A stretch of 64,000 nt of DNA, from the IMG/VR virus record IMGVR_UViG_3300020182_000012. One strand, written 5' to 3'. The notes under the pieces were generated by a model. That model saw nothing but the letters and a program-made list of their open reading frames with translations, was not told the DNA's origin and made no database searches. How positions within the stretch are numbered: the first letter of the stretch is position 1; the number at the start of each line of letters is the position of its first letter. Source of the DNA: a virus. Made by a program: the position numbers and the translations under genes. Below are positions 3,366 through 55,079 of this stretch, piece by piece.

Positions 3366-3406
3366 TAAATACTTGTGTCACAATGTGCATATTGGAAAAA
3401 TAATAC

Positions 3407-5128
3407 ATGGCCGGATGGAAAAAATACTTTAAAGTGGTGGGCAACGAAGGTGGGCAACTTTCGCCTATTAGCGGACGGTCTACTCAAGGATCAAATGGTC
3501 AAGGCGGCCAATTTGGTTTTAAGAATTACCAAAGTCACTTGCCTGAAGTGTATTCAGGTCACCCTAACAGAATTGAACGCTACAATCAGTATGAAAATAT
3601 GGATTGCGACAGTGAAATCAATGCATGTTTAGATATCATTGCTGAGTTTGCAACACAAACCAATGAAAGCAACAACACACCGTTTGAAGTTGAATACACT
3701 GATACTCCTACAAACAACGAAATTGAGATTATTAGAAAACAACTACAACAGTGGACTAAACTCAACAAGTTTGATCAACGTATATTCCGTCTTTTCCGTA
3801 ACACGTTGAAGTACGGCGATCAAGTTTTTGTTAGAGATCCAGAAACCTTTGAACTATACTGGGTTGACATGACCAAAGTAGTAAGAGTTATTGTCAATGA
3901 AAACGAAGGCAAGAAACCTGAACAATACGTTATTCGTGATATCAATCCCAACTTTCAAAATTTAAGCATTGCTCCTAAAAGCACCACAGACTATGGATCA
4001 AATCCTAATGCAGGGTCAATTGGCGGCAGCGGCGGATCAAATTCAAACTACACTATCCCAAATGCACCTCTTGCAGGTGGACAAAGTAGATTTGAACACA
4101 CTATAAACGAAACAGTAATTGATGCTAAAAATATAGTACACCTTGGACTTAGTGAAGGCTTGGATTTTTATTGGCCGTTTAGTCAAAGTATACTTGAAAT
4201 GATTTTCAAAGTATTCAAGCAAAAAGAGTTACTTGAAGACTCGATTCTAATTTATCGTGTGCAACGTGCGCCAGAACGTAGAGTATTTTATATTGATGTA
4301 GGCAACATGCCAAGTCACCTTGCTATGCAGTTTGTTGAACGTGTTAAAAATGAAGTGCACCAAAGACGTATTCCCAATCAACAAGGCGGGCAAGCTGGTA
4401 CTACAATGGATACTACATACAATCCATTGTCAATCAACGAAGATTACTTCTTTCCACAAACAGCAGAAGGTAGAGGATCAAAAGTTGAAACACTACCAGG
4501 AGGCGAAAACCTTGGACAAATCGACGATTTAAAATACTTTAACAACAAGATGTGCAGAGGACTTCGTGTTCCTAGCAGCTACCTTCCGACTGGCCCAGAC
4601 GACAGTGATCGACCAATGAACGACGGTCGTGTTGGTACTGCACTTATACAAGAATATAGATTTAATCAGTATTGCGAAAGACTGCAAAAGCAAATTTGTC
4701 AAAAACTTGATGATGAATTTAAAATGTTTTTGCGCTGGAGAGGCTTTAACATTGACAGCGGGTTGTTTAGCATCAAGTTTGCACCGCCACAGAATTTTGC
4801 TAGTTATCGTCAAGCCGAACTTGATACAACTCGTATGCAAGCGTTTAGCACATTAGAGCAAATTCCCTACATGAGCAAGCGTTTTCTTATGAAACGTTAC
4901 CTGGGTCTCACTGACGACGAGTTGCAAGAAAACTCGAAATTGTGGAGTGAAGAAACTGGGCAACCAAGTGAACTTGAACCAATGGGCAAAGATTTACGCA
5001 CAGTTGGTGTTAGTCCTGCTGATTTTGATGCAGATATCGAAACCGGCGGTGACATTGAAGCAGGCGGTGAGGAAATTGATGTGGACATTGATGCTGGTGC
5101 AGTTGCAGCAGAAACGCCTCCGGCATAA
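3407..5128 (+). CDS. gp20: Portal protein (T4 gp20-like)
   Basis: LLEDSILIYRVQRAPERRVFYIDVGNMP, EDYFFP, GRGSKVETLPGGENLG motifs. Confidence 0.95.
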   Translation: MAGWKKYFKVVGNEGGQLSPISGRSTQGSNGQGGQFGFKNYQSHLPEVYSGHPNRIERYNQYENMDCDSEINACLDIIAEFATQTNESNNTPFEVEYTDTPTNNEIEIIRKQLQQWTKLNKFDQRIFRLFRNTLKYGDQVFVRDPETFELYWVDMTKVVRVIVNENEGKKPEQYVIRDINPNFQNLSIAPKSTTDYGSNPNAGSIGGSGGSNSNYTIPNAPLAGGQSRFEHTINETVIDAKNIVHLGLSEGLDFYWPFSQSILEMIFKVFKQKELLEDSILIYRVQRAPERRVFYIDVGNMPSHLAMQFVERVKNEVHQRRIPNQQGGQAGTTMDTTYNPLSINEDYFFPQTAEGRGSKVETLPGGENLGQIDDLKYFNNKMCRGLRVPSSYLPTGPDDSDRPMNDGRVGTALIQEYRFNQYCERLQKQICQKLDDEFKMFLRWRGFNIDSGLFSIKFAPPQNFASYRQAELDTTRMQAFSTLEQIPYMSKRFLMKRYLGLTDDELQENSKLWSEETGQPSELEPMGKDLRTVGVSPADFDADIETGGDIEAGGEEIDVDIDAGAVAAETPPA

Positions 5129-5136
5129 ATATTATT

Positions 5137-5352
5137 ATGAAACTATTTGAATTTTTTGAAGCAGCGCCAGAAGGGTACCAAGATGTAGAGGATGACAATT
5201 CTACACCGCAACTCGGCGAACTGCGCAAAACTAAACTAACTCTTAAACAAATTTCAAAACTTCGAAAAATGTATGACATGCGAAATTATGAAAAAAAAGA
5301 AGAGCTGAAAAAGGTGCAAGCACAATATGCACCAGCGCCGCCACAAATGTGA
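5137..5352 (+). CDS. Small putative prohead core/internal protein
   Basis: Follows the portal; MKLFEFFE N-terminus resembles a T4 capsid-targeting sequence; RKTKLTLKQI..LRKM. Confidence 0.6.
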   Translation: MKLFEFFEAAPEGYQDVEDDNSTPQLGELRKTKLTLKQISKLRKMYDMRNYEKKEELKKVQAQYAPAPPQM

Positions 5353-5480
5353 TACTTTATTAGAATTTTTCTTTTAGTCTAATAAATTTATCGTTTTCTA
5401 CCCATTTTACTCCTATAACTGCATAGTTTTTAGTATCTATGTTAAATATTATACTGAGCCCATACTTTGGAGGAACCAAT

Positions 5481-6278
5481 ATGAACAAATTTGAACAACT
5501 TATCGAATTCGTTATTAACGACGAAGAAGATAAAGCAAAAGCTCTCTTTCATGAGATCGTTGTAGAGCAATCTAAAACAATCTATGAAGACATCATGTCT
5601 GAAGAATCAGACGCAGAAAAAGATGACCATGCTGAAAAAGCTGGTGATGAAGTTAAAAAAGACATCGAGTATGATGACAAAATGGACGAGTCCATCGAAG
5701 AGTCAGAACTTGGTGGATCACAAGTTGACGATCTTATTGACGAAATTGAAGCCGAAGAGCAAGGCGTCACTTTTGAAGATGAAGAAGAAATCGAAATGGT
5801 TGACGTCGACGTTGAAGATGATGACGACGATGAAGAACTCGAAGATCGTGTTGTTGGTCTAGAAGACAAACTAGACGAACTTATGTCTGAGTTTGAAGAA
5901 CTCATGGGTCAAGTTGATGACAACACTGACGACATCGACGATGTTGAAGATGACCATGAAGAAATGGACATGGACGACGAAACAGTCGAAGTTGACATGG
6001 AAATAGAAGGTCTAGAAGAAAATGTTGACCTAACTGCTGCTCCTAAAGCTGTTACCACTGAACCAGCTGGTACTCAAACGAGTAGTACTGTGGCTGCCAA
6101 CAGTGGCGCAAAAGGTGCTGTAGCAAAACCAGTTGACACAGACACTGCTCCAGAAAAAGGTCGCTCTGCTCCAAAAGCACAAGACCAAGGTAACACAACA
6201 AGACCAGACATGAAAGCTGCGCCAAAACCGCAACTAGCACAAGCGTCTGGTGTGAACACCAAAAGCGTTATTGACTAA
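5481..6278 (+). CDS. Acidic prohead core protein (gp67/gp68-like by position)
   Basis: GGAGG RBS; very Asp/Glu-rich; lies between portal and protease. Confidence 0.65.
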   Translation: MNKFEQLIEFVINDEEDKAKALFHEIVVEQSKTIYEDIMSEESDAEKDDHAEKAGDEVKKDIEYDDKMDESIEESELGGSQVDDLIDEIEAEEQGVTFEDEEEIEMVDVDVEDDDDDEELEDRVVGLEDKLDELMSEFEELMGQVDDNTDDIDDVEDDHEEMDMDDETVEVDMEIEGLEENVDLTAAPKAVTTEPAGTQTSSTVAANSGAKGAVAKPVDTDTAPEKGRSAPKAQDQGNTTRPDMKAAPKPQLAQASGVNTKSVID

Positions 6279-6292
6279 AAGGATAACCAAGT

Positions 6293-6919
6293 ATGGCTCT
6301 TTATCTTAGAGAAAACCTTACCTTCGAAACCGCACAAATTCAACTCGTTGAAGGGAAAGACGGTAAGGAACTCTTTATGGAAGGCATCTGCATACAAGGT
6401 GGTGTTAAGAACGCTAATGAGCGAATATACCCTGTGAGTGAGATTTCTAACGCAGTTAAAACTCTTAATGAACAGATCAAAGAAGGCAATAGCGTCCTTG
6501 GTGAAGTTGATCACCCGGATGACCTTAAGATTAATTTAGACCGTGTATGTCACATGATTACTAGTATGTGGATGGACGGTCCAAATGGATACGGAAAACT
6601 AAAAATACTTCCAACACCAATGGGCGAGCTAGTTAAAACTATGCTTCAGTCAGGTGTGCGATTGGGAGTATCTAGTCGTGGATCGGGTAATGTAGATCCA
6701 CACAACGGACACGTCAGTGACTTTGAAATTGTTACTGTCGATGTAGTCGCACAACCCAGTGCTCCAAATGCTTACCCTAAAGCTATTTACGAAGGACTTT
6801 TGAACATGAAACATGGTCATGCAGTTCTCGAAATGGCTAGGGAGTCAGGGTCAAACGACAGAGTACAGAAGTACCTAACAGACGAAGTATCTCGTCTGAT
6901 TAGGGACCTAAAGATTTAG
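6293..6919 (+). CDS. gp21: Prohead protease (T4 gp21-like)
   Basis: NANERIYP, GEVDHP, INLDRVCH, GVSSRGSG, DVVAQPSAPNAY motifs. Confidence 0.95.
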   Translation: MALYLRENLTFETAQIQLVEGKDGKELFMEGICIQGGVKNANERIYPVSEISNAVKTLNEQIKEGNSVLGEVDHPDDLKINLDRVCHMITSMWMDGPNGYGKLKILPTPMGELVKTMLQSGVRLGVSSRGSGNVDPHNGHVSDFEIVTVDVVAQPSAPNAYPKAIYEGLLNMKHGHAVLEMARESGSNDRVQKYLTDEVSRLIRDLKI

Positions 6920-6928
6920 GAGAATCGC

Positions 6929-8020
6929 ATGTTAGATGCTATTAAACCACTACTAGATAGCGACCTGGTTAATGAGGATACTCGTAATGCTATTGCTGAA
7001 CAATGGGCAGCAAAGTTGAATGAGACCAAAGAAACAGTTCGTGCAGAACTTCGCGAGGAGTTTGCACAACGCTATGATCATGATAAAACAGTGATGGTAG
7101 AAGCCCTAGATAAAATGGTAACAGAAGGCTTGCAAGAAGAAATTGCTCAACTTAACGAAGAGAAAAAGGCACTTGCAGAGGACCGTGTAAAAGCCGCAAA
7201 CGCAATGAAAGAAAATGCTAATAAATTTAATAACTTTATGGTATCAAAACTTTCAGAAGAGCTTCGCGAACTACGCACAGACCGCAAAGTACAAGCAGAA
7301 GGTTTTGGTAAGCTAGAATCATTTGTTGTAAGTGCTTTGGCCGAAGAAATCAAGGAATTCGCAGCAGACAAGAAAGACTTAGTTGAAACTAAAGTAAAGC
7401 TTGTTAGCGAAGCACGTGGACAACTTGATAGTCTAAAAAGTAAATTTGTAAAAGAATCTGCTAAAAAGATGTCAACAACTGTTGCTACTCATCTTACGCA
7501 AGAATTAAGTCAACTTAAAGAGGATATCAAAATTGCTCGTGAGAACAATTTTGGTCGCCGTATATTTGAAGCATATGCTACAGAGTTTGGTGCTACTCAT
7601 CTCAATGAGAATGCAGAAGTACGCAAACTATTAGCTACTATTGAAGATAAAGACATTAAGTTGGCAGAAGCCGTTAACGCTCAAAAACAAGCCGCAAAGC
7701 TTGTTGAGAGTAAAAATCATGAAATTAAAATCATTCGTGAAGCTAATGAGCGGGAAGCTACATTAGACGAACTACTTTCGCCTCTTAACGATGAAAAGAG
7801 AGAAGTAATGATTAATCTTCTTGAAAACGTTCAAACATCTCGTCTAAAGAACGCATTTGAGAAGTACTTGCCAGCAGTACTCAGTGAAGCTAAAGCAACT
7901 AAAAAAGCTGAAGCACTTGTTGAATCTACTGGTAACAAAACTGTTAAGGCCGAACAACAAAGATCCGAAACAAACAACGTTAATAACGTTATCGATCTTA
8001 AGCGCCTAGCAGGGCTTTAA
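6929..8020 (+). CDS. gp22: Major prohead scaffold protein (T4 gp22-like)
   Basis: Glu/Lys-rich coiled coil between protease and major capsid gene. Confidence 0.8.
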   Translation: MLDAIKPLLDSDLVNEDTRNAIAEQWAAKLNETKETVRAELREEFAQRYDHDKTVMVEALDKMVTEGLQEEIAQLNEEKKALAEDRVKAANAMKENANKFNNFMVSKLSEELRELRTDRKVQAEGFGKLESFVVSALAEEIKEFAADKKDLVETKVKLVSEARGQLDSLKSKFVKESAKKMSTTVATHLTQELSQLKEDIKIARENNFGRRIFEAYATEFGATHLNENAEVRKLLATIEDKDIKLAEAVNAQKQAAKLVESKNHEIKIIREANEREATLDELLSPLNDEKREVMINLLENVQTSRLKNAFEKYLPAVLSEAKATKKAEALVESTGNKTVKAEQQRSETNNVNNVIDLKRLAGL

Positions 8021-8040: not shown

Positions 8041-9252
8041 ATGTCACAAGAACTACTAGAAAACAGATGGAGTGAGACCAAGGAAGCCCTCCTAGAAGGC
8101 CTTCAAGGTTCACGCCGTTCAACAATGGGTGTTATCCTAGAAAACACTCGTAAGCACTTGGCAGAGAATGCAACAGCAGGTTCAACTTCTTCCGGTAACG
8201 TAGCAACACTTAACCGTGTTATCCTACCAGTTATCAGACGTGTTATGCCAACTGTTATTGCTAACGAACTAGTCGGCGTTCAGCCAATGACTGGCCCAGT
8301 TGGCCAAATTCACACACTACGTGTTCGTTATGCAAACGCAATGACAGACAACTCGGCAGCAGCAACAAGTACAGCCGCTGGTGACGAAGCACTAAGTCCA
8401 TTCAAAATTGCACAAGCTTACTCCTCTGCGTCCACAGTGACAGCAGGCGTTGTACAAAATGCACAGAACACATACCAAGGTGCAAACACAGCAGTACTTG
8501 AAGGCTCCGGTGGTCGTCAGATTTCCGTACAAATCCTCAAGCAAGCTGTTGAAGCAAAAACACGTAAGCTACAAGCTCGCTGGACATTTGAAGCAGCACA
8601 AGACGCACAAGCCATGCACGGCATTGACGTTGAAGCTGAAATCATGGCAGCACTTGCTCAAGAAATTACTGCTGAAATCGACCAAGAGATCCTACTTTCT
8701 CTACGTTCACTAGCAGCAACTGAGTTTACATACAACCAAGCCACAGTATCAGGTACAGCAACATTTGTTGGTGACGAGCATGCAGCTCTTGCAGTTCTAA
8801 TCAACCGTACAGCTAACTTGATCGCTCAGCGTACACGCCGTGGCGCAGGCAACTATGCTGTTGTTTCCCCTGCTGCACTTACAGTGCTACAGAGTGCAAC
8901 AACAAGTGCATTTGCTCGCACAACAGAAGGCACATTCGAAGCACCAACAAATACTAAATTCGTCGGTACATTGAATGGCACAATGCGTGTATTCTGCGAC
9001 TCATATGCAGGCGACACAACTCCAGTACTAGTTGGCTACAAAGGCGCAAGTGAAACAGACGCACCAGCGTTCTATTGCCCATACGTACCGCTAATGAGTT
9101 CGGGCGTTGTTCTTGATCCGTCCAGCTTTGAGCCAGTAGTGTCCTTTATGACACGTTATGGCTATATTGAGCTAACAAACACAGCATCGTCCTTCGGCAA
9201 CGCCGGTGACTATGTTGGTGAAATTGCTGTACAGAACCTTTCGTTCTCATAA
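8041..9252 (+). CDS. gp23: Major capsid protein (T4 gp23-like)
   Basis: VGVQPMTGPVG, AKTRKLQARWTFEAAQD, FYCPYVPL, FMTRYG; strong AGGAG RBS. Confidence 0.97.
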   Translation: MSQELLENRWSETKEALLEGLQGSRRSTMGVILENTRKHLAENATAGSTSSGNVATLNRVILPVIRRVMPTVIANELVGVQPMTGPVGQIHTLRVRYANAMTDNSAAATSTAAGDEALSPFKIAQAYSSASTVTAGVVQNAQNTYQGANTAVLEGSGGRQISVQILKQAVEAKTRKLQARWTFEAAQDAQAMHGIDVEAEIMAALAQEITAEIDQEILLSLRSLAATEFTYNQATVSGTATFVGDEHAALAVLINRTANLIAQRTRRGAGNYAVVSPAALTVLQSATTSAFARTTEGTFEAPTNTKFVGTLNGTMRVFCDSYAGDTTPVLVGYKGASETDAPAFYCPYVPLMSSGVVLDPSSFEPVVSFMTRYGYIELTNTASSFGNAGDYVGEIAVQNLSFS

Positions 9253-31501: not shown

Positions 31502-32275
31502 ATGGCAACAGTAACACTTGATCAAACACTTGATACTCTCAAGCAACAAACAATCGATTATGTAAAGCTTCAGCTCGGAGACGGAATGATTGATTTGGAA
31601 CTTGATGCAGAGCACTACGAAGCATCGTATCAACGAGCCCTTGGCACATACCGCCAACGAGCAGAAAATGCGTTTGAGGAAAGTTATAACTTTCTAAAAT
31701 TGCAAGATGGTGTAAATGTTTACACACTGCCCAGTGAAATACAAACTGTTAGGCAAGTGTTCAGAAGAACCATTGGGTGGGACAACGGCGGAGAAGGTAG
31801 TGCGTTTGAACCGTTTAGTTCAGCTGCACTTAACACATACTTGTTGAATGGTAACACCATGGGCGGACTTGCTACATATGATTTTTATAGCCAGTATGTT
31901 GAGCTTACTGCTAAGATGTTTGGTGGATTTTTGAATTACACTTACAATAGTGCATCTAAGGAGATAACACTAATGCGTGATATCAAGGGCAGCGGTGAAG
32001 TTGTATTGCTTTGGTGTTACAATCTGCGACCCGAAGCACAACTACTCAGCGATTTTTCTATCTCGCAATGGATAAAGGATTATATGATTGGCAATTGTAA
32101 ACTAATGATCGGCGAAGCCAGAGAAAAGTTTGCTACTATTGCTGGACCCCAAGGCGGTACTGCACTAAACGGTGCACAAATGAAAGCCGAAGGATCTGCT
32201 ATCATGGCTGAAAAAATCGAAGAGCTTAAAAACTATGTTGACGGCTCACAGCCTCTTACTTGGGTAATTGGATAA
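31502..32275 (+). CDS. gp13: Neck protein (T4 gp13-like)
   Basis: LG...IDLELD..HY, WIKDY....K..IG..R.KF..I.GPQGG..LNG. Confidence 0.85.
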   Translation: MATVTLDQTLDTLKQQTIDYVKLQLGDGMIDLELDAEHYEASYQRALGTYRQRAENAFEESYNFLKLQDGVNVYTLPSEIQTVRQVFRRTIGWDNGGEGSAFEPFSSAALNTYLLNGNTMGGLATYDFYSQYVELTAKMFGGFLNYTYNSASKEITLMRDIKGSGEVVLLWCYNLRPEAQLLSDFSISQWIKDYMIGNCKLMIGEAREKFATIAGPQGGTALNGAQMKAEGSAIMAEKIEELKNYVDGSQPLTWVIG

Positions 32276-32652
32276 TGAGAGCAGAAGAATTCATCACTGA
32301 ACACGAAATGGTTTTTAGTCGTACAGGTAACAAACTAAAAACCAAATGGCGTTGTACTAGCGGCCCACGAAACGGTCGTGTTGTTAGCAACGCAAAAGAT
32401 TGCGATGCTCCAATTGATCAGGCCAAGCGAGCTCAAATGAAGAAGACTCGCAAGACCAAGAGTGCTCAAGCAGCTCGCAAAGCTAAGAAGACCAAACGTG
32501 TAAATCCAGCTAGTAAGTTGTTAAGCATGCTCAACAAGATGCGCAAGTCTAGTGTTACCAGCGGCGGCAAAGTACAAAAAGCGTACAAGCCACCAAAGAG
32601 TAGCCTTAAAGGCACAACTGGAACTAAAAAAACAGTCAAGCCAAGAAAATAG
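32275..32652 (+). CDS. Basic putative capsid internal protein
   Basis: MRAEEFITE leader followed by a Lys/Arg-rich body. Confidence 0.65.
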   Translation: MRAEEFITEHEMVFSRTGNKLKTKWRCTSGPRNGRVVSNAKDCDAPIDQAKRAQMKKTRKTKSAQAARKAKKTKRVNPASKLLSMLNKMRKSSVTSGGKVQKAYKPPKSSLKGTTGTKKTVKPRK

Positions 32653-42777: not shown

Positions 42778-43299
42778 ATGACACGAAAACTAGAAGAATT
42801 ATTTGAATTGCCAGAATCGTCAGACGACGATGGGCTTGCCAACGAAGTAGTGCCTGATAATGTTCCAGATCCAACGCCTGATAACATGCCGGCAATGCAA
42901 AATGCTCTCAGTGAGCTTGATAAAGTACAAGCTGCTCTGCCTCAAGTAAGGGGGCTTGATGCTAGTGATCAAGAAATGGATGAGTTAGCAGATAAAGCAA
43001 CCAAAAGCTTTGACGACCTAATGGACCTTGGTATGAATATAGACAGTCGATGGGCAAGCGATGTATTCAGCGTAGCAAGTACTATGCTTGGGCATGCTAT
43101 TACTGCAAAAACAGCAAAGTTAAACAAAAAACTTAAAATGGTTGATTTACAGCTAAAGAAAGCTGCATTGGATGCCAAAGCGGCCCAGGCGGCCGCTAAC
43201 AGCAACGACGAAAACGATACTACTACAGGCACAGGAATGATACTAGATCGCAATGCGCTGTTAGATCGTTTATTGAACACAGACAAAGACGAAAAGTAA
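42778..43299 (+). CDS. Putative terminase small subunit
   Basis: MTRKLEELF, helical core DLMDLGMN...A..ML..AI.AK; start inferred from TAAATA-N5-ATG. Confidence 0.6.
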   Translation: MTRKLEELFELPESSDDDGLANEVVPDNVPDPTPDNMPAMQNALSELDKVQAALPQVRGLDASDQEMDELADKATKSFDDLMDLGMNIDSRWASDVFSVASTMLGHAITAKTAKLNKKLKMVDLQLKKAALDAKAAQAAANSNDENDTTTGTGMILDRNALLDRLLNTDKDEK

Positions 43300-43336
43300 C
43301 ATATTTGGCTAAATACTGTCATAGGGGATTAACAAG

Positions 43337-43945
43337 ATGAAATCATTCGCAAGCTATCTGACTGAGTCTAAAAAGACTTTTGATTATAGAATCAAAATAC
43401 TCGGTGACACGGATGCAAAGTTTATTAACGCACTAGAAGAAAAACTTCAACAGTTTGACGTTATTACTATGTCCGATGTAAAAAGATTACCAATTCAAAA
43501 AACACTTCAAGATTTTCCAGGTGTTGAAAACGAAGGCATGTCGTTCTTCGACGTATCGTTTAATTATCCAGCAACTCCGCCACAGATTATGCAGATTGCT
43601 AGGTTAATGGGCATGGATCCAAACCATATGATTATTCAACAAGCTGGGTATGCTGACAGCGTCGACAACGAGCGTGATGGATATGACGATCAAACAAATC
43701 CGCTACTTGGTACTGAATACGGACCAAATAGTGCTGAATCTAAAGAAGCTAGTGAATACTACAGTGCTGACCCCTATCAGCGTGAAGTAGTAGGCAACGA
43801 GTATGCAAGTGATTACACAATTGCAGGCGGTAAAACTGCGCCAGCAGTTTACAACACCGATACTCCAGCTGGTAAAGACAGCCCGATTATGGGTAAAAAC
43901 AAAATTCCAACGGTGAAAAGTTCCGCTGGTAAAGCAGATAGTTAA
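43337..43945 (+). CDS. Putative capsid internal/core protein
   Basis: MKSFASYLTE-S leader resembling the T4 capsid-targeting sequence. Confidence 0.6.
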   Translation: MKSFASYLTESKKTFDYRIKILGDTDAKFINALEEKLQQFDVITMSDVKRLPIQKTLQDFPGVENEGMSFFDVSFNYPATPPQIMQIARLMGMDPNHMIIQQAGYADSVDNERDGYDDQTNPLLGTEYGPNSAESKEASEYYSADPYQREVVGNEYASDYTIAGGKTAPAVYNTDTPAGKDSPIMGKNKIPTVKSSAGKADS

Positions 43946-43956
43946 GGAACAAACAC

Positions 43957-45381
43957 ATGGACAACATTTACACAACACTCGCAAAATTACAAGACGTTAC
44001 TAACAGAACTCCTATCATGGAAAGTGACACAGCTGGTAATATTGAAAACCTCAAAAAAGAATCAACTAAAGCTGTATCCGAAGATGACAGTATTTTTGCA
44101 GACACTGCACTAAGCATGGACAACCTTGCTAAACTCAAAGAAGTTGAAGAAACTGCTGGGACTATTAAAGCCGAGCTTAAAGATGCTATGATGTCACGTT
44201 TAGCTGAACTAGCAGGTGTGCCACTAAGTGAAATTGAAGAAGCAGCCGGCGAAAGTGAAACTGCTGAATCTGCTGCTAGTAGAATTGCAAGCGAAGTAGT
44301 GTTAGATGATGAGGATATTGCGGAAGCAAAAGACACACATTGTTCAGATAAGTGCTGCGGCAGTGATGTTAAAGCAGAAGACTGCAACTGTCCACCAGAT
44401 TGCAAGCATTGCAATTGCAACGCAGTAAGTGAATCATCTGCTGAGGATGAACGTGCACACATGCAAGCATTAGCAAAAGCATCCGAACCAGAGCGTGGCG
44501 AAGAGAGAAAAAAAGTATCTCTAAAGAAAGCACCATGGGAAGAGTCAGTTGAAGAAGCAGTAGGCGATAGTGCCGAGGCTATTTGGGAGTTATGCGACGA
44601 ATTAGACTGTGCAGCTCACCCGGTTTTCAGCGAATTAGTGCGCTACCTAGACGGCGATACACTACAAGACTTTGTGGCAGACTTCCGCAGACACAATGAC
44701 ATGAACGAAGGTGCAGTTAACGAAGATGACATTGACGAAAATGCATTTAATCAAGCTGCCGCAGCCGCAGCACGTGCAGGTAAAAAAGATTTCGAGTTTG
44801 GCGGCAAGACACACAAAACTACAATGAGTAAAGACACAGCACACAAATTAGATGATGATGTACAAGTCGACGAGGAAGAAAAAGTCGAAGAAACTACAAC
44901 AGCCGGCGCAGTTGCAACAGACGCAAGCGGCAACGGTAAATCACTGTACAAACATGCAAGTGTGTACGAAGGCAACGATATTGCTCAAAATGCAATGAGA
45001 CTAATGGAAGGTATGAATATCAACGTTAGTATGAATGATCAAAGTGGCCCAAGCCTAACTGTTACAGCAACAGACGAGGATGCAGCCAAACTTGGTTCAT
45101 TGCTACAGCTAGCAGGACTCGGTTCACTTGGTATGCAGCACGAAGCTGTTGCTGAAGATCAAGATTTTGCTAATGCTGCTGACGATACTGCAACGGCTGA
45201 TACTGAAACACTTGTTAATACAATTAGTGGTGGTCTTAACAGACAGAAGCAGCAAGTTAATCCTAACAATCCTGGCGACAATGCATTGGCAATGCAAGGT
45301 ATGGGCAACAACACAGTCAATCTTGAAGATATCACCGAAAGTCACTTAATGTCTCTTTACCAGGAGTTTAAAACAAAATGA
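43957..45381 (+). CDS. Acidic modular putative core polyprotein with a Cys-rich segment
   Basis: Many hydrophobic-X-E sites; 8-Cys segment; LLQLAGL motif like the scaffold C-terminus LKRLAGL. Confidence 0.65.
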   Translation: MDNIYTTLAKLQDVTNRTPIMESDTAGNIENLKKESTKAVSEDDSIFADTALSMDNLAKLKEVEETAGTIKAELKDAMMSRLAELAGVPLSEIEEAAGESETAESAASRIASEVVLDDEDIAEAKDTHCSDKCCGSDVKAEDCNCPPDCKHCNCNAVSESSAEDERAHMQALAKASEPERGEERKKVSLKKAPWEESVEEAVGDSAEAIWELCDELDCAAHPVFSELVRYLDGDTLQDFVADFRRHNDMNEGAVNEDDIDENAFNQAAAAAARAGKKDFEFGGKTHKTTMSKDTAHKLDDDVQVDEEEKVEETTTAGAVATDASGNGKSLYKHASVYEGNDIAQNAMRLMEGMNINVSMNDQSGPSLTVTATDEDAAKLGSLLQLAGLGSLGMQHEAVAEDQDFANAADDTATADTETLVNTISGGLNRQKQQVNPNNPGDNALAMQGMGNNTVNLEDITESHLMSLYQEFKTK

Positions 45382-46301
45382 GCTTAACAAAATACATCTC
45401 CGAGAGCGAAAGAGCACAGTCTTTTATGATTGAAGGCGATGTATTTGTCGCAGTTGTCAACGAAGAACTAGCACTAGAGTTTGATGTTGCAAGTCACAAC
45501 GATGATAGTGTGGTTATCGAATCAGATGAATATGGACTATCGGTGCTCGAAGGCTGCGGTTGCACAATAAGTGACGACGACGAAGTATCCGAAGGCAAGA
45601 TGAAAGATTCTCAACTTGACGATGCTGAAAACATGAGTAAAGCAGAGTTCATTAAAAAGCACGGTAGAGAAGCAGCAATAAATTATTTTGAATCAGCTGA
45701 GGTTACAACTAACTATTCTGATCAAGCAAAATTTCACGAACGCATGGGTAACAAAGATACCGCTGCATTCTATATGAAAAAACATCACACTGCACTTGCT
45801 GAAAGTTTTGAACTTGTTGAAGATTCAGACGATGTAGCAGACATTATTAAGCGTAGACTCATGACCATGGGAGGATTTAGCGATCTCGTTAGACAGTACG
45901 GTGTTGACCGTATGATTGACGCAATTGAACAAGAAGCTGAACTTCACGCAGACGATGAAGAAATGGGCTCAAGTGATGTTAGCGCAATGGTTAACAATGT
46001 GATGCAAACTTTAGAGTATGGCAAAACCAATGAAGCCAAATATCAAGGACGTGAAGTTAAGCTCGGCAAGCCATCAAGGGGCGATGTTAAAAAGTTTAAG
46101 GTGTATGTAAAAGATCCTAAAACAGGAAATGTTAAAAAAGTAAACTTTGGAGATCCTAACATGGAAATCCGTAGAGACAACCCGGATGCTCGTAAAAACT
46201 TCCGTGCTAGACACAATTGCTCGGACAAAAAAGATAGAACAAAAGCAGGCTACTGGAGTTGCCGTATGTGGAGTAAAAAACCAGTAAGTAAGATTACATA
46301 A
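45378..46301 (+). CDS. Modular putative internal protein with a basic C-terminal domain
   Basis: MSLTKYISE leader; C-terminal KFKVYVKDPKTGNVKKVNFGD...FRARHNC...AGYWSC domain. Confidence 0.65.
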   Translation: MSLTKYISESERAQSFMIEGDVFVAVVNEELALEFDVASHNDDSVVIESDEYGLSVLEGCGCTISDDDEVSEGKMKDSQLDDAENMSKAEFIKKHGREAAINYFESAEVTTNYSDQAKFHERMGNKDTAAFYMKKHHTALAESFELVEDSDDVADIIKRRLMTMGGFSDLVRQYGVDRMIDAIEQEAELHADDEEMGSSDVSAMVNNVMQTLEYGKTNEAKYQGREVKLGKPSRGDVKKFKVYVKDPKTGNVKKVNFGDPNMEIRRDNPDARKNFRARHNCSDKKDRTKAGYWSCRMWSKKPVSKIT

Positions 46302-46310
46302 GGAAAATAA

Positions 46311-46601
46311 ATGGCTAGTCAATCAACAGTATACGCAGGTGCAATTTCGGCACAAGCCTGGGCTACAGATAAAGCAATGATCTCAACCGGCAGTAATAGT
46401 GTAACAGCACAAGTTATTCTTGCAGGTAAGCCAACTGAAAATACAGACACTATCTATAGTGCGCCAATAGTTATTCCTGCAAACAACACAAGATACATGT
46501 ATATAGGTGTCGGCAATCAGCTTACTATTGTTGGTAGTAATTCTACAGCTGCCGAAGTAGGCACTGCTTCAAGTGCAAACAGCGGAGTTTATAATATCTA
46601 A
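46311..46601 (+). CDS. Small hypothetical virion protein
   Basis: AAGGA RBS; beta-rich 96 aa. Confidence 0.55.
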   Translation: MASQSTVYAGAISAQAWATDKAMISTGSNSVTAQVILAGKPTENTDTIYSAPIVIPANNTRYMYIGVGNQLTIVGSNSTAAEVGTASSANSGVYNI

Positions 46602-46978
46602 TGAGAGCTATTGAATTCTTACAGGAAGAAAGAGGCTTGCGTTTAAAGCACATGAAAGGCAAAGCGCCCCATGTGCATCAAGCGGCAAGTCCTGGCCATG
46701 TGAGAAGCAAAGGCTACTACGACATGTATCGTGCTACTATCGCTATGGCTGGCATGGACGCCGACGGACACAACGAAAACATGCCAGATCCAGAAAGCTG
46801 GATTGGCGGCGATGGTCTTATTAGTCCGTTCTCTGATGTAGAGAGAGATATGGCAAAGATGGCGTTTGCTGCACTCGGTATGGTTAGTAAAGAAGATGGA
46901 TCTCACACAGGCAGTCGCGAACCTGATGGTGTAAACACAGAAAGTCCTGTAATAGGGTTTAAAGGTTATCCAAGGTAA
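46601..46978 (+). CDS. Putative capsid internal protein
   Basis: MRAIEFLQE leader. Confidence 0.6.
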   Translation: MRAIEFLQEERGLRLKHMKGKAPHVHQAASPGHVRSKGYYDMYRATIAMAGMDADGHNENMPDPESWIGGDGLISPFSDVERDMAKMAFAALGMVSKEDGSHTGSREPDGVNTESPVIGFKGYPR

Positions 46979-47841
46979 TGGCTATCGTTGGACCAACCTC
47001 ATACCAACATCAGTTTCCAAACTATCAATTAAATGATGTTCACCAAGCAATGGATTACAATGCTGCTGGTCAACCCATTCTGAGAACAGCAGGAGATACG
47101 TTTAGCTGGTCAATTAATATAAGTGCTGGCAATGTTGACGGTGTAAGCTACATTGAAAAGTTTGGTATGAACACAGATGTTGATGCTAACAAAGAAACTA
47201 TTTGGGACGGCGGCGATATTTATACTTATATTTCTACAGCGGAAACAGTAACAGTTACAAGTTCAAGTGGAAGCGATAGTGCTGCTGGTACAGGTGCTAG
47301 AACAGTTGAAATACAAGGTCTAAATAGTTCTTATGAAGTTGTAACAGAAACTCTGACAGTTGGCGGCGCGGCTGGATCAACTGGGTTTTTAAGAGTGTTT
47401 CGTGCTGTTGTAATTACTGCCGGCTCCGATGGAGTAAATGCTGGAACTATCAGTGTTACCAGTGATAGCACTAGTACAGTGTTAGCACAAATAGGAATTG
47501 ATGGCACAGGTTCAAATGCTGCCGGACGTGGACAAACATTTATGGCATTGTACACTATACCTGCAGGTAAAACTGGATACCTAACACAATGGACAGTTGG
47601 GTCTGGAAAACAAAATACAGATGCAGTTGCATTTATTTTATCGCGTGATGCAACTGTCACTGATGCTGCATTTAATTCTAAAGATATTATCACCGTTAGT
47701 GCGACAACATACAGCAAAAATTATACTATTCCTTTGCAGTTTACCGAAAAAACTGACATTGAGGTTCGTGCATATTCGGGAACCAATAACAGTTTGGTTA
47801 GCAGCACGTTTAACCTCATCTTATACGATAACCTAAGTTAA
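46978..47841 (+). CDS. Hypothetical virion protein
   Basis: KFG.N.DVD...ETIW, GTGARTV.IQGL, YTIPAGKTGYL, EKTDI. Confidence 0.65.
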   Translation: MAIVGPTSYQHQFPNYQLNDVHQAMDYNAAGQPILRTAGDTFSWSINISAGNVDGVSYIEKFGMNTDVDANKETIWDGGDIYTYISTAETVTVTSSSGSDSAAGTGARTVEIQGLNSSYEVVTETLTVGGAAGSTGFLRVFRAVVITAGSDGVNAGTISVTSDSTSTVLAQIGIDGTGSNAAGRGQTFMALYTIPAGKTGYLTQWTVGSGKQNTDAVAFILSRDATVTDAAFNSKDIITVSATTYSKNYTIPLQFTEKTDIEVRAYSGTNNSLVSSTFNLILYDNLS

Positions 47842-51522: not shown

Positions 51523-53094
51523 ATGAGCAAATCACTTGACGGGGTGCTGATTAAAAGTCCCCATAAAAAAGAAGAATACACTGAACAGCAAATTCAAGAA
51601 TTTGTGCTGTGCGCTGATCCTGTGAAGGGTGCCGAATACTTTATGAAGAACTTTTTCTTCATACAACACCCTGTGCAAGGAAAAATGCAGTATGATCCTT
51701 GGGAATTTCAAGAACGCTTGATTCAAACTTACCACGAAAACAGATTTTCAATATCAATGATGCCAAGGCAAACTGGTAAAAGCACAAGTGCTGCTGGATA
51801 TCTTCTTTGGTTTGGTATGTTCAAACCCGACAGTACAATTCTTGTTGCAGCACACAAGTATGCAGGTGCTCAAGAAATTATGCAACGTGTGAGGTATGCA
51901 TACGAAGCATGCCCAAATCACATACGAGCCGGCGTAGTAAGTTACAATAAAGGCAGTATTGAATTTGACAATGGAAGTCGTATTGTAGCACAGACGACAA
52001 CTGAAAATACCGGACGTGGTATGAGTATTACACTTTTATATTGTGACGAGTTTGCATTTGTTCGACCTACTATTGCTAAAGAATTTTGGACTAGTATATC
52101 ACCTACACTGAGCACCGGTGGTGGGGCTATTATTACTAGTACCCCAAACAGTGACGAGGATCAGTTTGCATACATATGGAAAGGCGCAAACAAAACCGAA
52201 GACGAGTTTGGAAATACCAAAGACTTGGGCATTAATGGATTTAAAGCGTATCGAGCATATTGGGCCGAGCATCCCGATAGGGACGAAGAATGGGCAGATG
52301 AGCAACGTGCTATATTAGGAATTGAACGATTCCGTCGAGAAATGGATTGTGAATTCATTATCAACGATGAAACACTTATTGCTCCAACCAAACTGATTGA
52401 TCTCGAAGGCATAGAACCTTTATATAAAACTGGACAAGTTCGTTGGTATAAAAAGCCACAGAAAAATAGAATCTATGTAGTGGCATTGGACCCAAGCCTG
52501 GGCACTGGCGGCGATCCAAGTGCTATCCAAGTGTTTGAAGCTAACACAACAGAACAAGTGGCAGAGTGGCGACACAATAAAACTCCTATTCCGGACCAAA
52601 TTCGAATATTAGTTGACATCATTAAACACATCAATGACGAAGTTCAAGATCCGCAGAGTGTTTACTATTCAGTTGAAAACAATACACTAGGAGAAGCTGC
52701 GTTGATTACAATTGATCAATATGGGGAACAAAATATACCTGGTTATTTTCTAAGTGACAACAGTGTTGTTAGTGGTAGTGGCAGGCGGTATCGCAAAGGA
52801 TTTAATACCACAAACAAAAGTAAAGTTTCAGCATGTGCAAAATTAAAAACACTTGTTGAAACAGACAAAATGACAGTTCGTAGTAGAAGTCTAATAGGCG
52901 AATTTAAAAACTTTGTAGCACATGGCACTAGCTATGCAGCTAAACCCGGAGAAACAGATGATTTGGTTATGTCTACTATATTAGCTATTCGTATGTTGCA
53001 AATTTTAACAGGGTATCACAAGGAACTGGATACACACATGACTGATTTTGGAGAGGATCAAATTGAACCTTTGCCGTTTGTGGCAATGTTTTAA
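51523..53094 (+). CDS. gp17: Terminase large subunit (T4 gp17-like)
   Basis: PRQTGKS Walker A, LLYCDEFAF, ITSTPN, ALDPS, DDLVM. Confidence 0.95.
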   Translation: MSKSLDGVLIKSPHKKEEYTEQQIQEFVLCADPVKGAEYFMKNFFFIQHPVQGKMQYDPWEFQERLIQTYHENRFSISMMPRQTGKSTSAAGYLLWFGMFKPDSTILVAAHKYAGAQEIMQRVRYAYEACPNHIRAGVVSYNKGSIEFDNGSRIVAQTTTENTGRGMSITLLYCDEFAFVRPTIAKEFWTSISPTLSTGGGAIITSTPNSDEDQFAYIWKGANKTEDEFGNTKDLGINGFKAYRAYWAEHPDRDEEWADEQRAILGIERFRREMDCEFIINDETLIAPTKLIDLEGIEPLYKTGQVRWYKKPQKNRIYVVALDPSLGTGGDPSAIQVFEANTTEQVAEWRHNKTPIPDQIRILVDIIKHINDEVQDPQSVYYSVENNTLGEAALITIDQYGEQNIPGYFLSDNSVVSGSGRRYRKGFNTTNKSKVSACAKLKTLVETDKMTVRSRSLIGEFKNFVAHGTSYAAKPGETDDLVMSTILAIRMLQILTGYHKELDTHMTDFGEDQIEPLPFVAMF

Positions 53095-53105
53095 TAAATA
53101 GTATT

Positions 53106-55079
53106 ATGGCACAAGATAACAACGCAGCACAACAAATTTTCGATACTATAGTAACACGAGACCTTGACCCTAAATCACTCGATGCTATGGGCAAGCCGAC
53201 TGTGAATGCAGCCGATGCAGATCTAATTTCGTTTAATTTTAAAACCGAAAACAAAGATTATGGAACAGTGGTTGTCTTAATAGACGGCGAAGAGAAAATT
53301 GAATTATATTACGGTGACAGCATTGGGCGCACAATGGAACGTGATGACCGCAGTGATTGGTATGATTTCCTTGCGGTTATTAGAAATATAGCAAAGCGTA
53401 ACTTGTACACATTTGGCCTTAATAATATGAATAGGTTAAAGTATTCAATGAAAAGCATGGCAAAATTAGCCGAAGGTTGGAACGGAACAAATAAAACCAG
53501 CTATAACAAGCAAGGTCCAGCAAAGCTTATTATCAAACATTCACGAAAGCTAGGCGAAGGTGAAGCACGTTTTAGAAACATTGAAAGTTTGTTTGTTGAA
53601 AATAGCCAAGGCGAAAGATTTAAAATGCCATTCCGTAGTATAAGTGGCGGTAAAGCAATGGCAAGACATGTGTCCGAAGGCGGTAACCCATACGACACAA
53701 TTGGGCAACATATCAGTGACACAATTAGTGAAATAGCAACACTGGGAAGATTTATTAGAGCCAGTAAAAGCAAATCATTTGGGCAAAATGCAGATGCGCT
53801 AAACATTGCCGAAGATGCAGTTAGGCACTACAAAGACCTTAAACGCAAAGCAAAGAAAATGATCAGTCGTCGGGGCTATAAAGATATCTTTGCATCATGG
53901 GATCCGATGGAAATTACCGAGCTTGACGAAACCATTGAGCAAGTAAGAGAAGTATTTTCAAAAAATACAATTGATAGCCGTATCGAAGAAGCTCTACCAA
54001 TATTAGCAAAGATAAAGGAAACTAGCATGAAAGAAGCTGACGTATTTGAGCAGTGGGCAGACAGTATCACTGAAGGTACATGGGCATTGCCCGATACGCC
54101 AGAACAAATGGCAGAATTAGCTGAACTTATGAAAGAACCATTGCATTGTGGTCCAGCTGGCGAATTTGCAACTGAGCAACTGTATGGACTAATTGGCGAC
54201 GATGAACTGTTTGATGACATTTATGAAATGGGATTGGAAAATCCCGATGCTGATTGTAGACCACTAGTACTAGCTAGACTCAAAGAATTCAACATCGAGC
54301 TTGGCGAAAATGCACCAATGACTAGCATACGCCCACAGTCTAGAACACTTAGCAACCTTGGCGGCACACGAGAAATTGCACCAAACGGAGAACCAACTGG
54401 TAGTACCAGAGGCTTTAAGCCACTAGGAGAAGATGAGCAGTTAAATGAAATTGCACCTGCTGCGGTTGCAGCGGCTGTTTGGGTTATCAAATGGTGTATC
54501 AGATTTGGTGCTTGGCCAGTAATTAAGTGGTTGTTGAAAAAACACGGTGGTAAACTGTTTGGTGGCGCAGCTATAGCTTATTATATTGACGAAGGATGGG
54601 ATTGGGTTAAACGTGCAATTGGTGAAGAATATGCACAAATGTTGATTGACAATAAATTTGAAATTGGCATGGCAGTTGCATTTATAGTAGGTGCTGTTGC
54701 ACTTAAAAAACTCGTCGAGAAACAAGGTGAGAAACTTGTTAGTGCAAACGACAAGATGGACACAATGAATGAAGATCAGGCATATAGAACTGATCGTTTA
54801 AATACTATTCAAAAAGATAGAACTGATCGTCTAAACGCTATTCAAAAAGGCAGAGATGATCGAAAAGCAGAACTTCAAAAGTCTAGAGATGACAGACGTG
54901 GAGTAGTAGAAGATCCAACGCAAGAAGAGCCTCTTACTAAAGCAAATCAACAAGACCTCGACGATGAAGATATGACAGAAGTAACAGACATTGACACAGG
55001 AAAACCTGCACTAAAAGCAGAGCGTGACCCAATGATCGAATCAGAGCTAGATAGACTATTAACACTAGCTCGAGGGTAG
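53106..55079 (+). CDS. Modular virion-associated protein with a hydrophobic insert
   Basis: AMARHVSEGG.PYD core; several X-E cleavage-like sites; amphipathic segment 54450-54773. Confidence 0.7.
   Translation: MAQDNNAAQQIFDTIVTRDLDPKSLDAMGKPTVNAADADLISFNFKTENKDYGTVVVLIDGEEKIELYYGDSIGRTMERDDRSDWYDFLAVIRNIAKRNLYTFGLNNMNRLKYSMKSMAKLAEGWNGTNKTSYNKQGPAKLIIKHSRKLGEGEARFRNIESLFVENSQGERFKMPFRSISGGKAMARHVSEGGNPYDTIGQHISDTISEIATLGRFIRASKSKSFGQNADALNIAEDAVRHYKDLKRKAKKMISRRGYKDIFASWDPMEITELDETIEQVREVFSKNTIDSRIEEALPILAKIKETSMKEADVFEQWADSITEGTWALPDTPEQMAELAELMKEPLHCGPAGEFATEQLYGLIGDDELFDDIYEMGLENPDADCRPLVLARLKEFNIELGENAPMTSIRPQSRTLSNLGGTREIAPNGEPTGSTRGFKPLGEDEQLNEIAPAAVAAAVWVIKWCIRFGAWPVIKWLLKKHGGKLFGGAAIAYYIDEGWDWVKRAIGEEYAQMLIDNKFEIGMAVAFIVGAVALKKLVEKQGEKLVSANDKMDTMNEDQAYRTDRLNTIQKDRTDRLNAIQKGRDDRKAELQKSRDDRRGVVEDPTQEEPLTKANQQDLDDEDMTEVTDIDTGKPALKAERDPMIESELDRLLTLARG
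54784..54849 (+). repeat. 33-nt tandem repeat (RTDRLNxIQKx), degenerate copies follow
   Basis: ATAGAACTGATCGT(T/C)TAAA...CTATTCAAAAAG twice. Confidence 0.85.

Follow-up and report, generated by a model that had tools for sequence, protein, structure and literature searches.

The region 43337-46978 of a viral DNA stretch of 64,000 nucleotides (nt) (IMG/VR record IMGVR_UViG_3300020182_000012; the whole stretch is called the window below) contains genes for a 202-amino acid (aa) protein B, a 474-aa acidic protein C, a 307-aa protein D and a 125-aa protein F. A 96-aa open reading frame (ORF) at 46311 lacks a leader and lies outside the system described here. The source is an uncultured ~300-kb marine jumbo myophage, a relative of T4. 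Near-identical genes occur on a 299,910-bp IMG/VR sister contig, and the nearest isolates, which are only distant relatives, belong to the Pseudomonas PA5oct group, with a terminase ~51% identical; nucleotide search of the region against isolate phages gave no match. Our results point to a relationship between these genes, further genes of the window (Table 1) and the internal head proteins of T4. We propose that they probably form a system of the T4 type for head targeting and processing, in which some carriers are composite and which is predicted to be more modular than that of T4.

Table 1. Positions of the proteins, modules and head genes discussed in the text; a slash marks the cleavage position, predicted or known
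Feature	Position	Strand	Features or evidence
Portal, T4 gp20 family	3407..5128	+	Pfam Portal_T4 3e-107
71-aa protein, gp67 position, leader MKLFEFFE	5137..5352	+	phrog_13986
Very acidic core protein, gp68 position, start MNKFEQLIE	5481..6278	+	orthologue starts; gene order
Prohead protease, T4 gp21 family	6293..6919	+	Pfam Peptidase_S77 (PF03420) 5.5e-26; phrog_207 2.5e-57
Scaffold, gp22 position	6929..8020	+	densest [LIVM]-x-E substrate, 27 sites
Major capsid protein, gp23 family	8041..9252	+	Pfam Gp23 match from residue 54; N-terminal propeptide
125-aa basic protein, leader MRAEEFITE	32275..32652	+	net +31 body, zero sites
202-aa protein B, leader MKSFASYLTE (43337-43366)	43337..43945	+	leader, ferredoxin-like core, tail
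474-aa acidic protein C (net -56)	43957..45381	+	20 [LIVM]-x-E sites
Cys-rich cassette CCG..C.C..C.HCNC inside C	44326..44433	+	bounded by IAE/A and VSE/S
307-aa protein D, leader MSLTKYISE	45378..46301	+	acidic carrier, residues 1-219 (net -31), junction TNE/A, basic domain
Predicted mature basic domain of D, 88 aa	46035..46298	+	phrog_7595, 1e-11
125-aa protein F, leader MRAIEFLQE	46601..46978	+	leader conservation in family
657-aa virion protein	53106..55079	+	conserved N-terminal ~400 aa, variable module region, conserved C-terminal ~50 aa

An earlier note on this DNA had listed capsid-targeting leaders at 43337, 45378, 46601, 32275 and 5137. All five are found there, and a sixth, MNKFEQLIE, begins at 5481. 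They are close to the capsid-targeting sequence (CTS) of T4, which in NC_000866 reads MKTYQEFIAE/A in ipII and ipIII; the same record gives MLKEQLIAE/A for gp22, MAKINELLRE/S for gp24 and FLTE/A for gp23, and in one relative of our phage the leader is MKNFQEYLAE/S, near the T4 CTS. A pattern derived from the T4 CTS (^M.{3,6}[FY][LIVF].E) matches 4 of the 72 ORFs in the window, where 0.30 would be expected (P ~3e-4), and among the 374 ORFs of the sister contig it matches only orthologues of the same four genes. In a comparison set of 77 related viral contigs, the leader residues are fixed down to 33-47% identity. The patterns kept are MK.F..YL.E in the 202-aa family, MR..EF..E in the 125-aa family, and M[ST]LKKYI.ESE or MKTLKEYI.E in the 307-aa family. 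Invariant leader residues are written with mixed synonymous codons, and selection therefore acts on the peptide and not on an RNA element. Moreover, the leader MRA.EF[ILV].E is present on four bodies (two are single ORFs) between which BLAST at 1e-4 shows no similarity, and the nine-residue leader is the only part which the 46601 and 32275 proteins have in common. Occurrence of the same leader on unrelated bodies is a hallmark of T4 internal proteins (PMC3012670). Comparison of homologues thus establishes a leader resembling the T4 type (M-K/R-x-x-E-F/Y-I/L-x-E) that is under selection at the protein level.

The leaders might instead be ordinary conserved N-terminal helices, and the excess of x-E motifs described below might come from amphipathic helices or from composition. 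The motif is short, in the 202-aa family conservation does not drop beyond the leader (0.85 after it vs 0.82 within it), and the PA5oct homologue of this family lacks the leader Glu. The sharing of one leader by unrelated bodies speaks against this explanation, and the properties of the cleavage motif bear on it further.

A homologue of gp21, the prohead protease of T4, had been assigned to the gene at 6293..6919, and this assignment is borne out by the Peptidase_S77 match and by 34% identity to T4 gp21. The GE.(D/N)HP and GVSSRG motifs, which hold the catalytic His and Ser in T4, are kept. To assess potential substrates, [LIVM]-x-E sites were counted and compared with 300-500 composition-keeping shuffles of each protein. 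Within the window, density far above that of the shuffles is confined to the scaffold (27 sites vs 11.9 expected, z +5.4), the 657-aa protein (28 vs 12.9, z +5.2) and the 474-aa protein (20 vs 9.9, z +3.7). The known multi-cut substrates of T4, used as positive controls, scored similarly (gp22 z +3.7, gp21 +4.0, inh +3.1), while the negative controls gp18 and gp19 (sheath and tube) and hoc stayed near 0. Among 290 proteins of the sister genome, orthologues of the scaffold, 657-aa and 474-aa proteins occupy ranks 1-3 (z 5.7, 4.8 and 4.0; next 2.8). The ranking recurs in the 328-kb relative G003, with the scaffold orthologue at the top and the 474-aa orthologue at z +3.6, and for the scaffold and 657-aa orthologue also in the 340-kb relative G005. 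Seven control motifs (h-x-D, h-x-K, h-x-Q, E-x-h, hE, h-xx-E and h-xxx-E, h being hydrophobic) gave no comparable excess, which argues against both composition and helical periodicity.

Site glutamates are also better conserved than the other glutamates of the same proteins, in the 474-aa family (0.71 vs 0.37, p=0.0015) as well as in the 657-aa family (0.70 vs 0.54, p=0.009). Most of the individual sites singled out in the earlier note turned out to be conserved in homologues: IAE/A, LME/G and TNE/A reach 1.0, VSE/G 0.92, VSE/S 0.86, ITE/G 0.83 and VEE/A 0.78. LNE/I stays at 0.5, and MNE/G was not among the sites scored. Selection for the putative protease motif in the 474-aa and 657-aa proteins is thus supported.

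The best defined junction lies in the 307-aa protein, in front of its basic C-terminal domain. The 89 aa beginning at Glu219 are net +16 and contain no [LIVM]-x-E site, and the x-x-E/A junction before the domain is invariant in 16 of 16 members of the D family. Database search at E<=1e-5 yielded 5059 homologous clusters of this domain, with small ORFs of marine phages among the matches; elsewhere it is a free-standing gene. In the best 120 of the 5059 homologues, P3 of the junction is L in 88, I in 26, M in 4 and V in 2, P2 is any of 15 different residues, P1 is E in 119 and P1' is A in 116. The propeptides before the domain, in the same 120, have ~42 residues, a mean net charge of -7.7 and a mean of 4.8 sites; 65% of their Glu stand in site context, vs 1.8% in the net +20 mature part. 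Several homologues carry a minimal T4-like leader placed straight on the domain, e.g. MLRFKQFSE/AEY and MKKFKQYIDE/G... Leaderless homologues of small viruses begin at the residue after the predicted cut (MAKYQGR, MAKYKGR, MAIYRGR, MATYKGK). Such MA.Y.G starts are present in four of the five leaderless proteins, from pelagiphages HTVC111P and Aegir, roseophage CRP-901 and a Nitrosopumilaceae spindle virus; the fifth, from CRP-235, begins MAIDKARM.

Presence of the propeptide follows that of the protease. Peptidase_S77 is encoded by four of four isolates with the propeptide and by none of five leaderless ones (Fisher p=0.008); when viral contigs are added, the figures are 8/9 and 0/5 (p=0.003). 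Four of the five large contigs with a propeptide encode the peptidase, the fifth being 32% complete. This co-occurrence, and the freedom of P2 next to fixed P3, P1 and P1', add to the absence of excess in control spacings and residues, and to shuffles that keep composition, as arguments against ordinary helices. That explanation is disfavoured, and we regard it as very improbable. The basic domain looks as if it were released at the x-E/A junction. In roseophage CRP-6, gp55 (L145:335-1021) has the basic domain fused N-terminally to a Peptidase_S78_2 (XkdF-type) phage protease domain (7e-18); if the fused enzyme is a prohead protease, the basic domain would therefore be located inside the procapsid.

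Some further variants of the basic domain deserve mention. A subset of homologues (L183, L193, L206, L207, L209, L213 and L224) has Asp at the junction (..ELFD/AEY), and this may track a protease of other specificity or represent an uncut form. In Methylophilales phage Melnitz (L140:1-1788, Melnitz-3) the domain is the C-terminus of a ~650-aa DUF5824 protein, joined at PMME/SEY, and in HTVC008M (L139) the basic domain has a gene of its own, next to that of a related large protein. The AF2 model of the domain (pLDDT 81.7, one good model of five) gave no match in the PDB, the best Foldseek E being 0.9 and the best VIA-align Z 2.2. DNA binding is therefore deduced from its charge only, as the fold matched nothing solved. 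An OB-like fold, considered from the weak structural matches, was dropped.

Modular architecture is apparent also in the two site-rich proteins. Members of the 474-aa family range from 385 to 892 aa and consist of a conserved N-terminus (MDNIY..L.KL), a hypervariable modular middle, in which the length variation resides, and a conserved C-terminal part of ~170 aa. The Cys-rich cassette of protein C lies between two of the conserved sites, IAE/A and VSE/S, and the same cassette is found in the 307-aa family of relatives (L008, L010, L014 and others), where h-x-E sites lie on either side of it as well. Orthologues of the 657-aa protein measure 649-1326 aa, with about 18 conserved sites in the N-terminal ~400 aa; one of them, PA5oct gp206 (site z +3.2), is annotated as 'structural, ESI-MS/MS' (PMC7318152). 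On the sister contig (IMGVR_UViG_3300035070_002626; L102:3001-5232) the orthologue has 744 aa and includes an 87-aa insert, without counterpart in the window, exactly between the conserved PLGE/ and FMSE/A. This insert matches Pfam Sigma70_r4 (residues 522-567, 4.3e-8, above cut-off); it may be a head-packaged mimic of sigma region 4. The shuffling of modules is thus real.

In its full form, the interpretation of the earlier note would make the 474-aa, 307-aa and 657-aa proteins true polyproteins, in which every segment would be a functional peptide or domain, released in the head and injected as part of a modular effector set. In keeping with such an arrangement, some modules are mobile cassettes flanked by sites, namely the Cys-rich one moving between the C and D families and the Sigma70_r4 insert, the basic domain exists elsewhere as a gene of its own, and mature modules are devoid of sites. 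It also predicts that indels in homologues begin and end at X-E sites. This did not hold: 21 of 78 insertion blocks in three families start and 17 of 78 end at such sites (27% and 22%) vs 25% expected, although alignment of acidic low-complexity sequence limits the power of the test. With boundaries at chance level, the prediction is not borne out in general; agreement with the sites is limited to defined folded modules: the basic domain (16/16 in the D family; 119/120 among the best homologues), the Cys cassette and the Sigma70_r4 insert. Sites follow each other at a mean distance of ~23 residues, as in the scaffold, and most segments of this size could not be folded modules. When ten longer members of the 474-aa and 307-aa families were searched against Pfam, moreover, the variable modules gave no match above curated cut-offs and two weak ones below threshold. 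We judge polyproteins in the full sense to be unlikely.

A related possibility is that the carriers are 'payload racks' loaded into the head, with cassettes swapped by recombination, freed by the protease and delivered to the host together with DNA. The candidate cassettes would comprise the net +16 DNA-binding-like domain, the Cys-rich, putatively metal-binding module, a hydrophobic Trp/Lys module and the sigma-70 region-4 helix-turn-helix of the sister phage. This, too, we put forward as a tentative proposal with the odds against it. If it is true, such racks would be programmable virion-borne takeover factors, and the basic domain would be one of the commonest internal virion proteins without annotation in marine phages; if module swapping is true, the carriers would represent a natural virion protein-delivery system.

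High site density is also seen in disposable scaffold and core proteins, T4 gp22 and the scaffold of this phage, and therefore fits a disposable core protein as well as it fits a polyprotein. Accordingly, the 474-aa and 657-aa proteins might be extra scaffold or core for a jumbo head, degraded and expelled without any cargo, with only the small leader proteins being internal. Site density and acidity of the two resemble those of the phage's own scaffold and of gp22, their central regions are low-complexity and variable in length, and their indels ignore the sites. Against this, the 657-aa orthologue gp206 was found in mature PA5oct virions, the conserved parts of the two proteins, 400 aa at the N-terminus of the 657-aa one and ~170 aa at the C-terminus of the 474-aa one, have the appearance of folded domains under selection, and inserts of domains such as Sigma70_r4 are hard to explain in a disposable scaffold. 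Extra scaffold is in our opinion a doubtful explanation.

A gene pair in G005 (C1:65051-70778) shares features with these carriers. A 65-aa gene with the start MRAAEFVKE lies ~1.1 kb upstream of the gene for a 1466-aa protein, which has the top [LIVM]-x-E excess of that genome (z +4.5). The 1466-aa protein looks like another carrier family, not represented in the window.

The proteins at 32275, 46601 and probably 43337 are regarded as simple cargoes. In the 202-aa family all 19 homologues, down to 36% identity, keep M1, K2, Y7, L8 and E10 of the leader. The leader is followed by a ferredoxin-like core (residues ~14-118) and a disordered Pro/Gly-rich tail. The AF2 model of this protein (pLDDT 62.6) retrieved S6/ACT-like folds in Foldseek with E of 1e-4 to 1e-3; a specific fold was not assigned, the model giving just a generic ferredoxin-like one. 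PA5oct gp202, a homologue with 26% identity, is annotated as 'structural protein, ESI-MS/MS' (PMC7318152). In 30 sequences of the F family, conservation of M-R-.-.-E-F-.-.-E is at least 80%, with values of 0.74 for the leader and 0.43 for the body, and relatives contain several paralogues per genome; since the family is small (12 clusters), it offered no lead to remote homology. The 32275 gene, which directly follows the head-tail adaptor gene, is the most similar of the set to T4 internal protein genes. No function for any cargo body was obtained from Pfam, NCBIfam and PHROGs, and ESM Atlas returned only unnamed viral clusters and a weak DUF5754 lead.

The head genes of the window follow the order portal-small-acidic-protease-scaffold-major capsid protein, which corresponds to 20-67-68-21-22-23 of T4; the protease gene is thus located in a T4-type head module, flanked by Portal_T4 and Gp23 genes. 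The capsid protein has a conserved L-x-E/NA at about residue 43 (HLAE/NAT, HLNE/NAT and YLKE/NAS in orthologues). For the gp68-position gene, the ORF of 5439-6278 has its true start at Met15 (5481), because orthologues begin MNKFEQLIE and MTSKFEQLIE. The longest-ORF start at 5439 is probably wrong, and the start at 5481 places a CTS-like leader on this protein.

Spacers are nearly absent between 43337 and the genes 43957-47841 that come after it, and this suggests one late transcript. The strict T4 late promoter TATAAATA shows no enrichment, with 7 copies where 4.2 would be expected. TAAATA-type elements GCTAAATACT, GATAAATACT and TAATAAATAG are situated 10-40 nt upstream of the 202-aa, portal and 657-aa genes (regions 43300-43336, 3370-3406 and 53080-53105). 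As only these looser elements are present and the strict form is not enriched, no promoter is claimed. Upstream of 43337 there is a gene for a 173-aa protein (42778-43299, phrog_16202) with the conserved N-terminus MT[KR]KLEELF[ED]LP, neither Glu of which is invariant. In PA5oct its counterpart, gp201, is not among the proteins detected in virions, and the 173-aa protein probably stands outside the cargo set.

From the motifs, the selection acting on them, the sharing of leaders and the co-occurrence with the protease, we infer targeting, cleavage, retention and ejection in the following way. By analogy with T4, the leader would dock a newly made protein on the scaffolding core, the shell would close around it, and the gp21-family serine protease (6293-6919) would cut after Glu in (L/I/V/M)-x-E. 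Simple cargoes (32275, 46601 and probably 43337) would lose the leader only. Composite carriers (43957, 45378 and 53106) would be cut at many sites, so that their acidic linkers and propeptides are shredded like scaffold and site-free folded modules survive, most clearly the net +16 basic domain of protein D. Until cleavage, the acidic carrier (net -31) probably masks this domain. Afterwards, the domain and the net +31 protein of 32275 would probably stay on the packaged DNA and leave the head with it. We therefore consider it likely that the proteins described here are prohead-core (internal head) proteins of the T4 type.

Several observations weigh against this conclusion, in addition to the chance placement of indels and the site density of disposable scaffolds. 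The raw leader count over the whole sister contig is weak (4 vs ~1.5 expected) and as evidence no more than suggestive; the weight of the leader case comes from conservation and from the leader shared by unrelated bodies, not from this count. MKLFEFFE is the weakest leader, because its final Glu is Asp in the G003 orthologue, and the leader of PA5oct gp202 reads MKSFRDYYDAS, without the Glu. The 307-aa protein, which the earlier note had put beside the 474-aa and 657-aa proteins as a chain of segments separated by such sites, is not enriched overall (z +1.0; carrier alone +0.9). The broader pattern used in that note raises the 307-aa protein to z +4.6, but it is post hoc. Its junction has Thr at P3 (TNE/A), off the L/I rule. 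The 474-aa protein lacks detectable similarity to its positional analogue PA5oct gp203 (E 0.3), and the analogy is therefore positional only; gp203 itself is weakly enriched in sites (z +1.5). Finally, the mature 202-aa protein (net -10) and 125-aa protein F (net -2) are not basic, unlike the internal proteins of T4.

Among known systems, the closest is that of the T4 internal proteins IPI, IPII and IPIII and of Alt, which carry a CTS and are processed by gp21 (Mullaney & Black 1996, reviewed in PMC3012670 and PMC5694885). The likeness includes a leader of ~10 residues with nearly the same sequence, ending in (L/I)-x-E, its presence on unrelated bodies, a protease of the gp21 family in the head module and the small size and strongly basic nature of some products (the 32275 protein and the basic domain of protein D). 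The differences are that the host of the system is a ~300-kb marine jumbo phage, that several cargoes are not basic, and that there are three long, multi-site modular carriers with the cargo at the C-terminus and not behind the leader, known here from sequence alone.

The prohead core proteins gp22, gp67 and gp68 of T4 are cut by gp21 into short fragments (PMC5694885). Our proteins resemble them in acidity, in a strong (L/I/V/M)-x-E excess, in the order of the genes surrounding the protease and in CTS-like leaders (MLKEQLIAE in gp22, MNKFEQLIE here). However, the genes for the 474-aa and 657-aa proteins adjoin the terminase and are not part of the head module, and their products have folded ends that are conserved and exchange inserts the size of a domain.

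Inner-body and ejection proteins of phages phiKZ, 201phi2-1 and SPN3US have long multi-site propeptides, which a related prohead protease cuts on the C-terminal side of Glu and which are thought to direct the proteins to the prohead (PMC5694885, PMC10052503). These are jumbo phages as well, and long propeptides with several cleavage motifs on head proteins are common to them and to our phage. Their motif is A/S/G-x-E, whereas P3 is L/I/V/M here (L/I in 114/120 at the best-defined junction), and short T4-type leaders are kept here, which SPN3US largely lacks. Neither type of processing is described for this clade or for the basic-domain family in PMC5694885, PMC3012670 and PMC10052503, and the PA5oct paper (PMC7318152) does not discuss processing.

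For the large unannotated phrog_7595 family (>5000 clusters), we propose a testable role as a basic internal head protein activated by the protease, with A-(E/K)-Y-x-G as the predicted mature N-terminus in cultured T4-like marine phages. The leader and the spacing-specific site excess together provide a way of listing likely head-internal proteins that needs only sequence and is validated on T4.

Basic core proteins of adenovirus, pVII and pre-mu, condense DNA and have a propeptide cut by the virion protease inside the capsid. They represent a functional analogy only, as the viruses, proteases and folds are unrelated. The principle of CTS and gp21, which rests on experiments with T4 and has been investigated mostly in T-even phages, would be extended here to an uncultured clade of marine jumbo phages.

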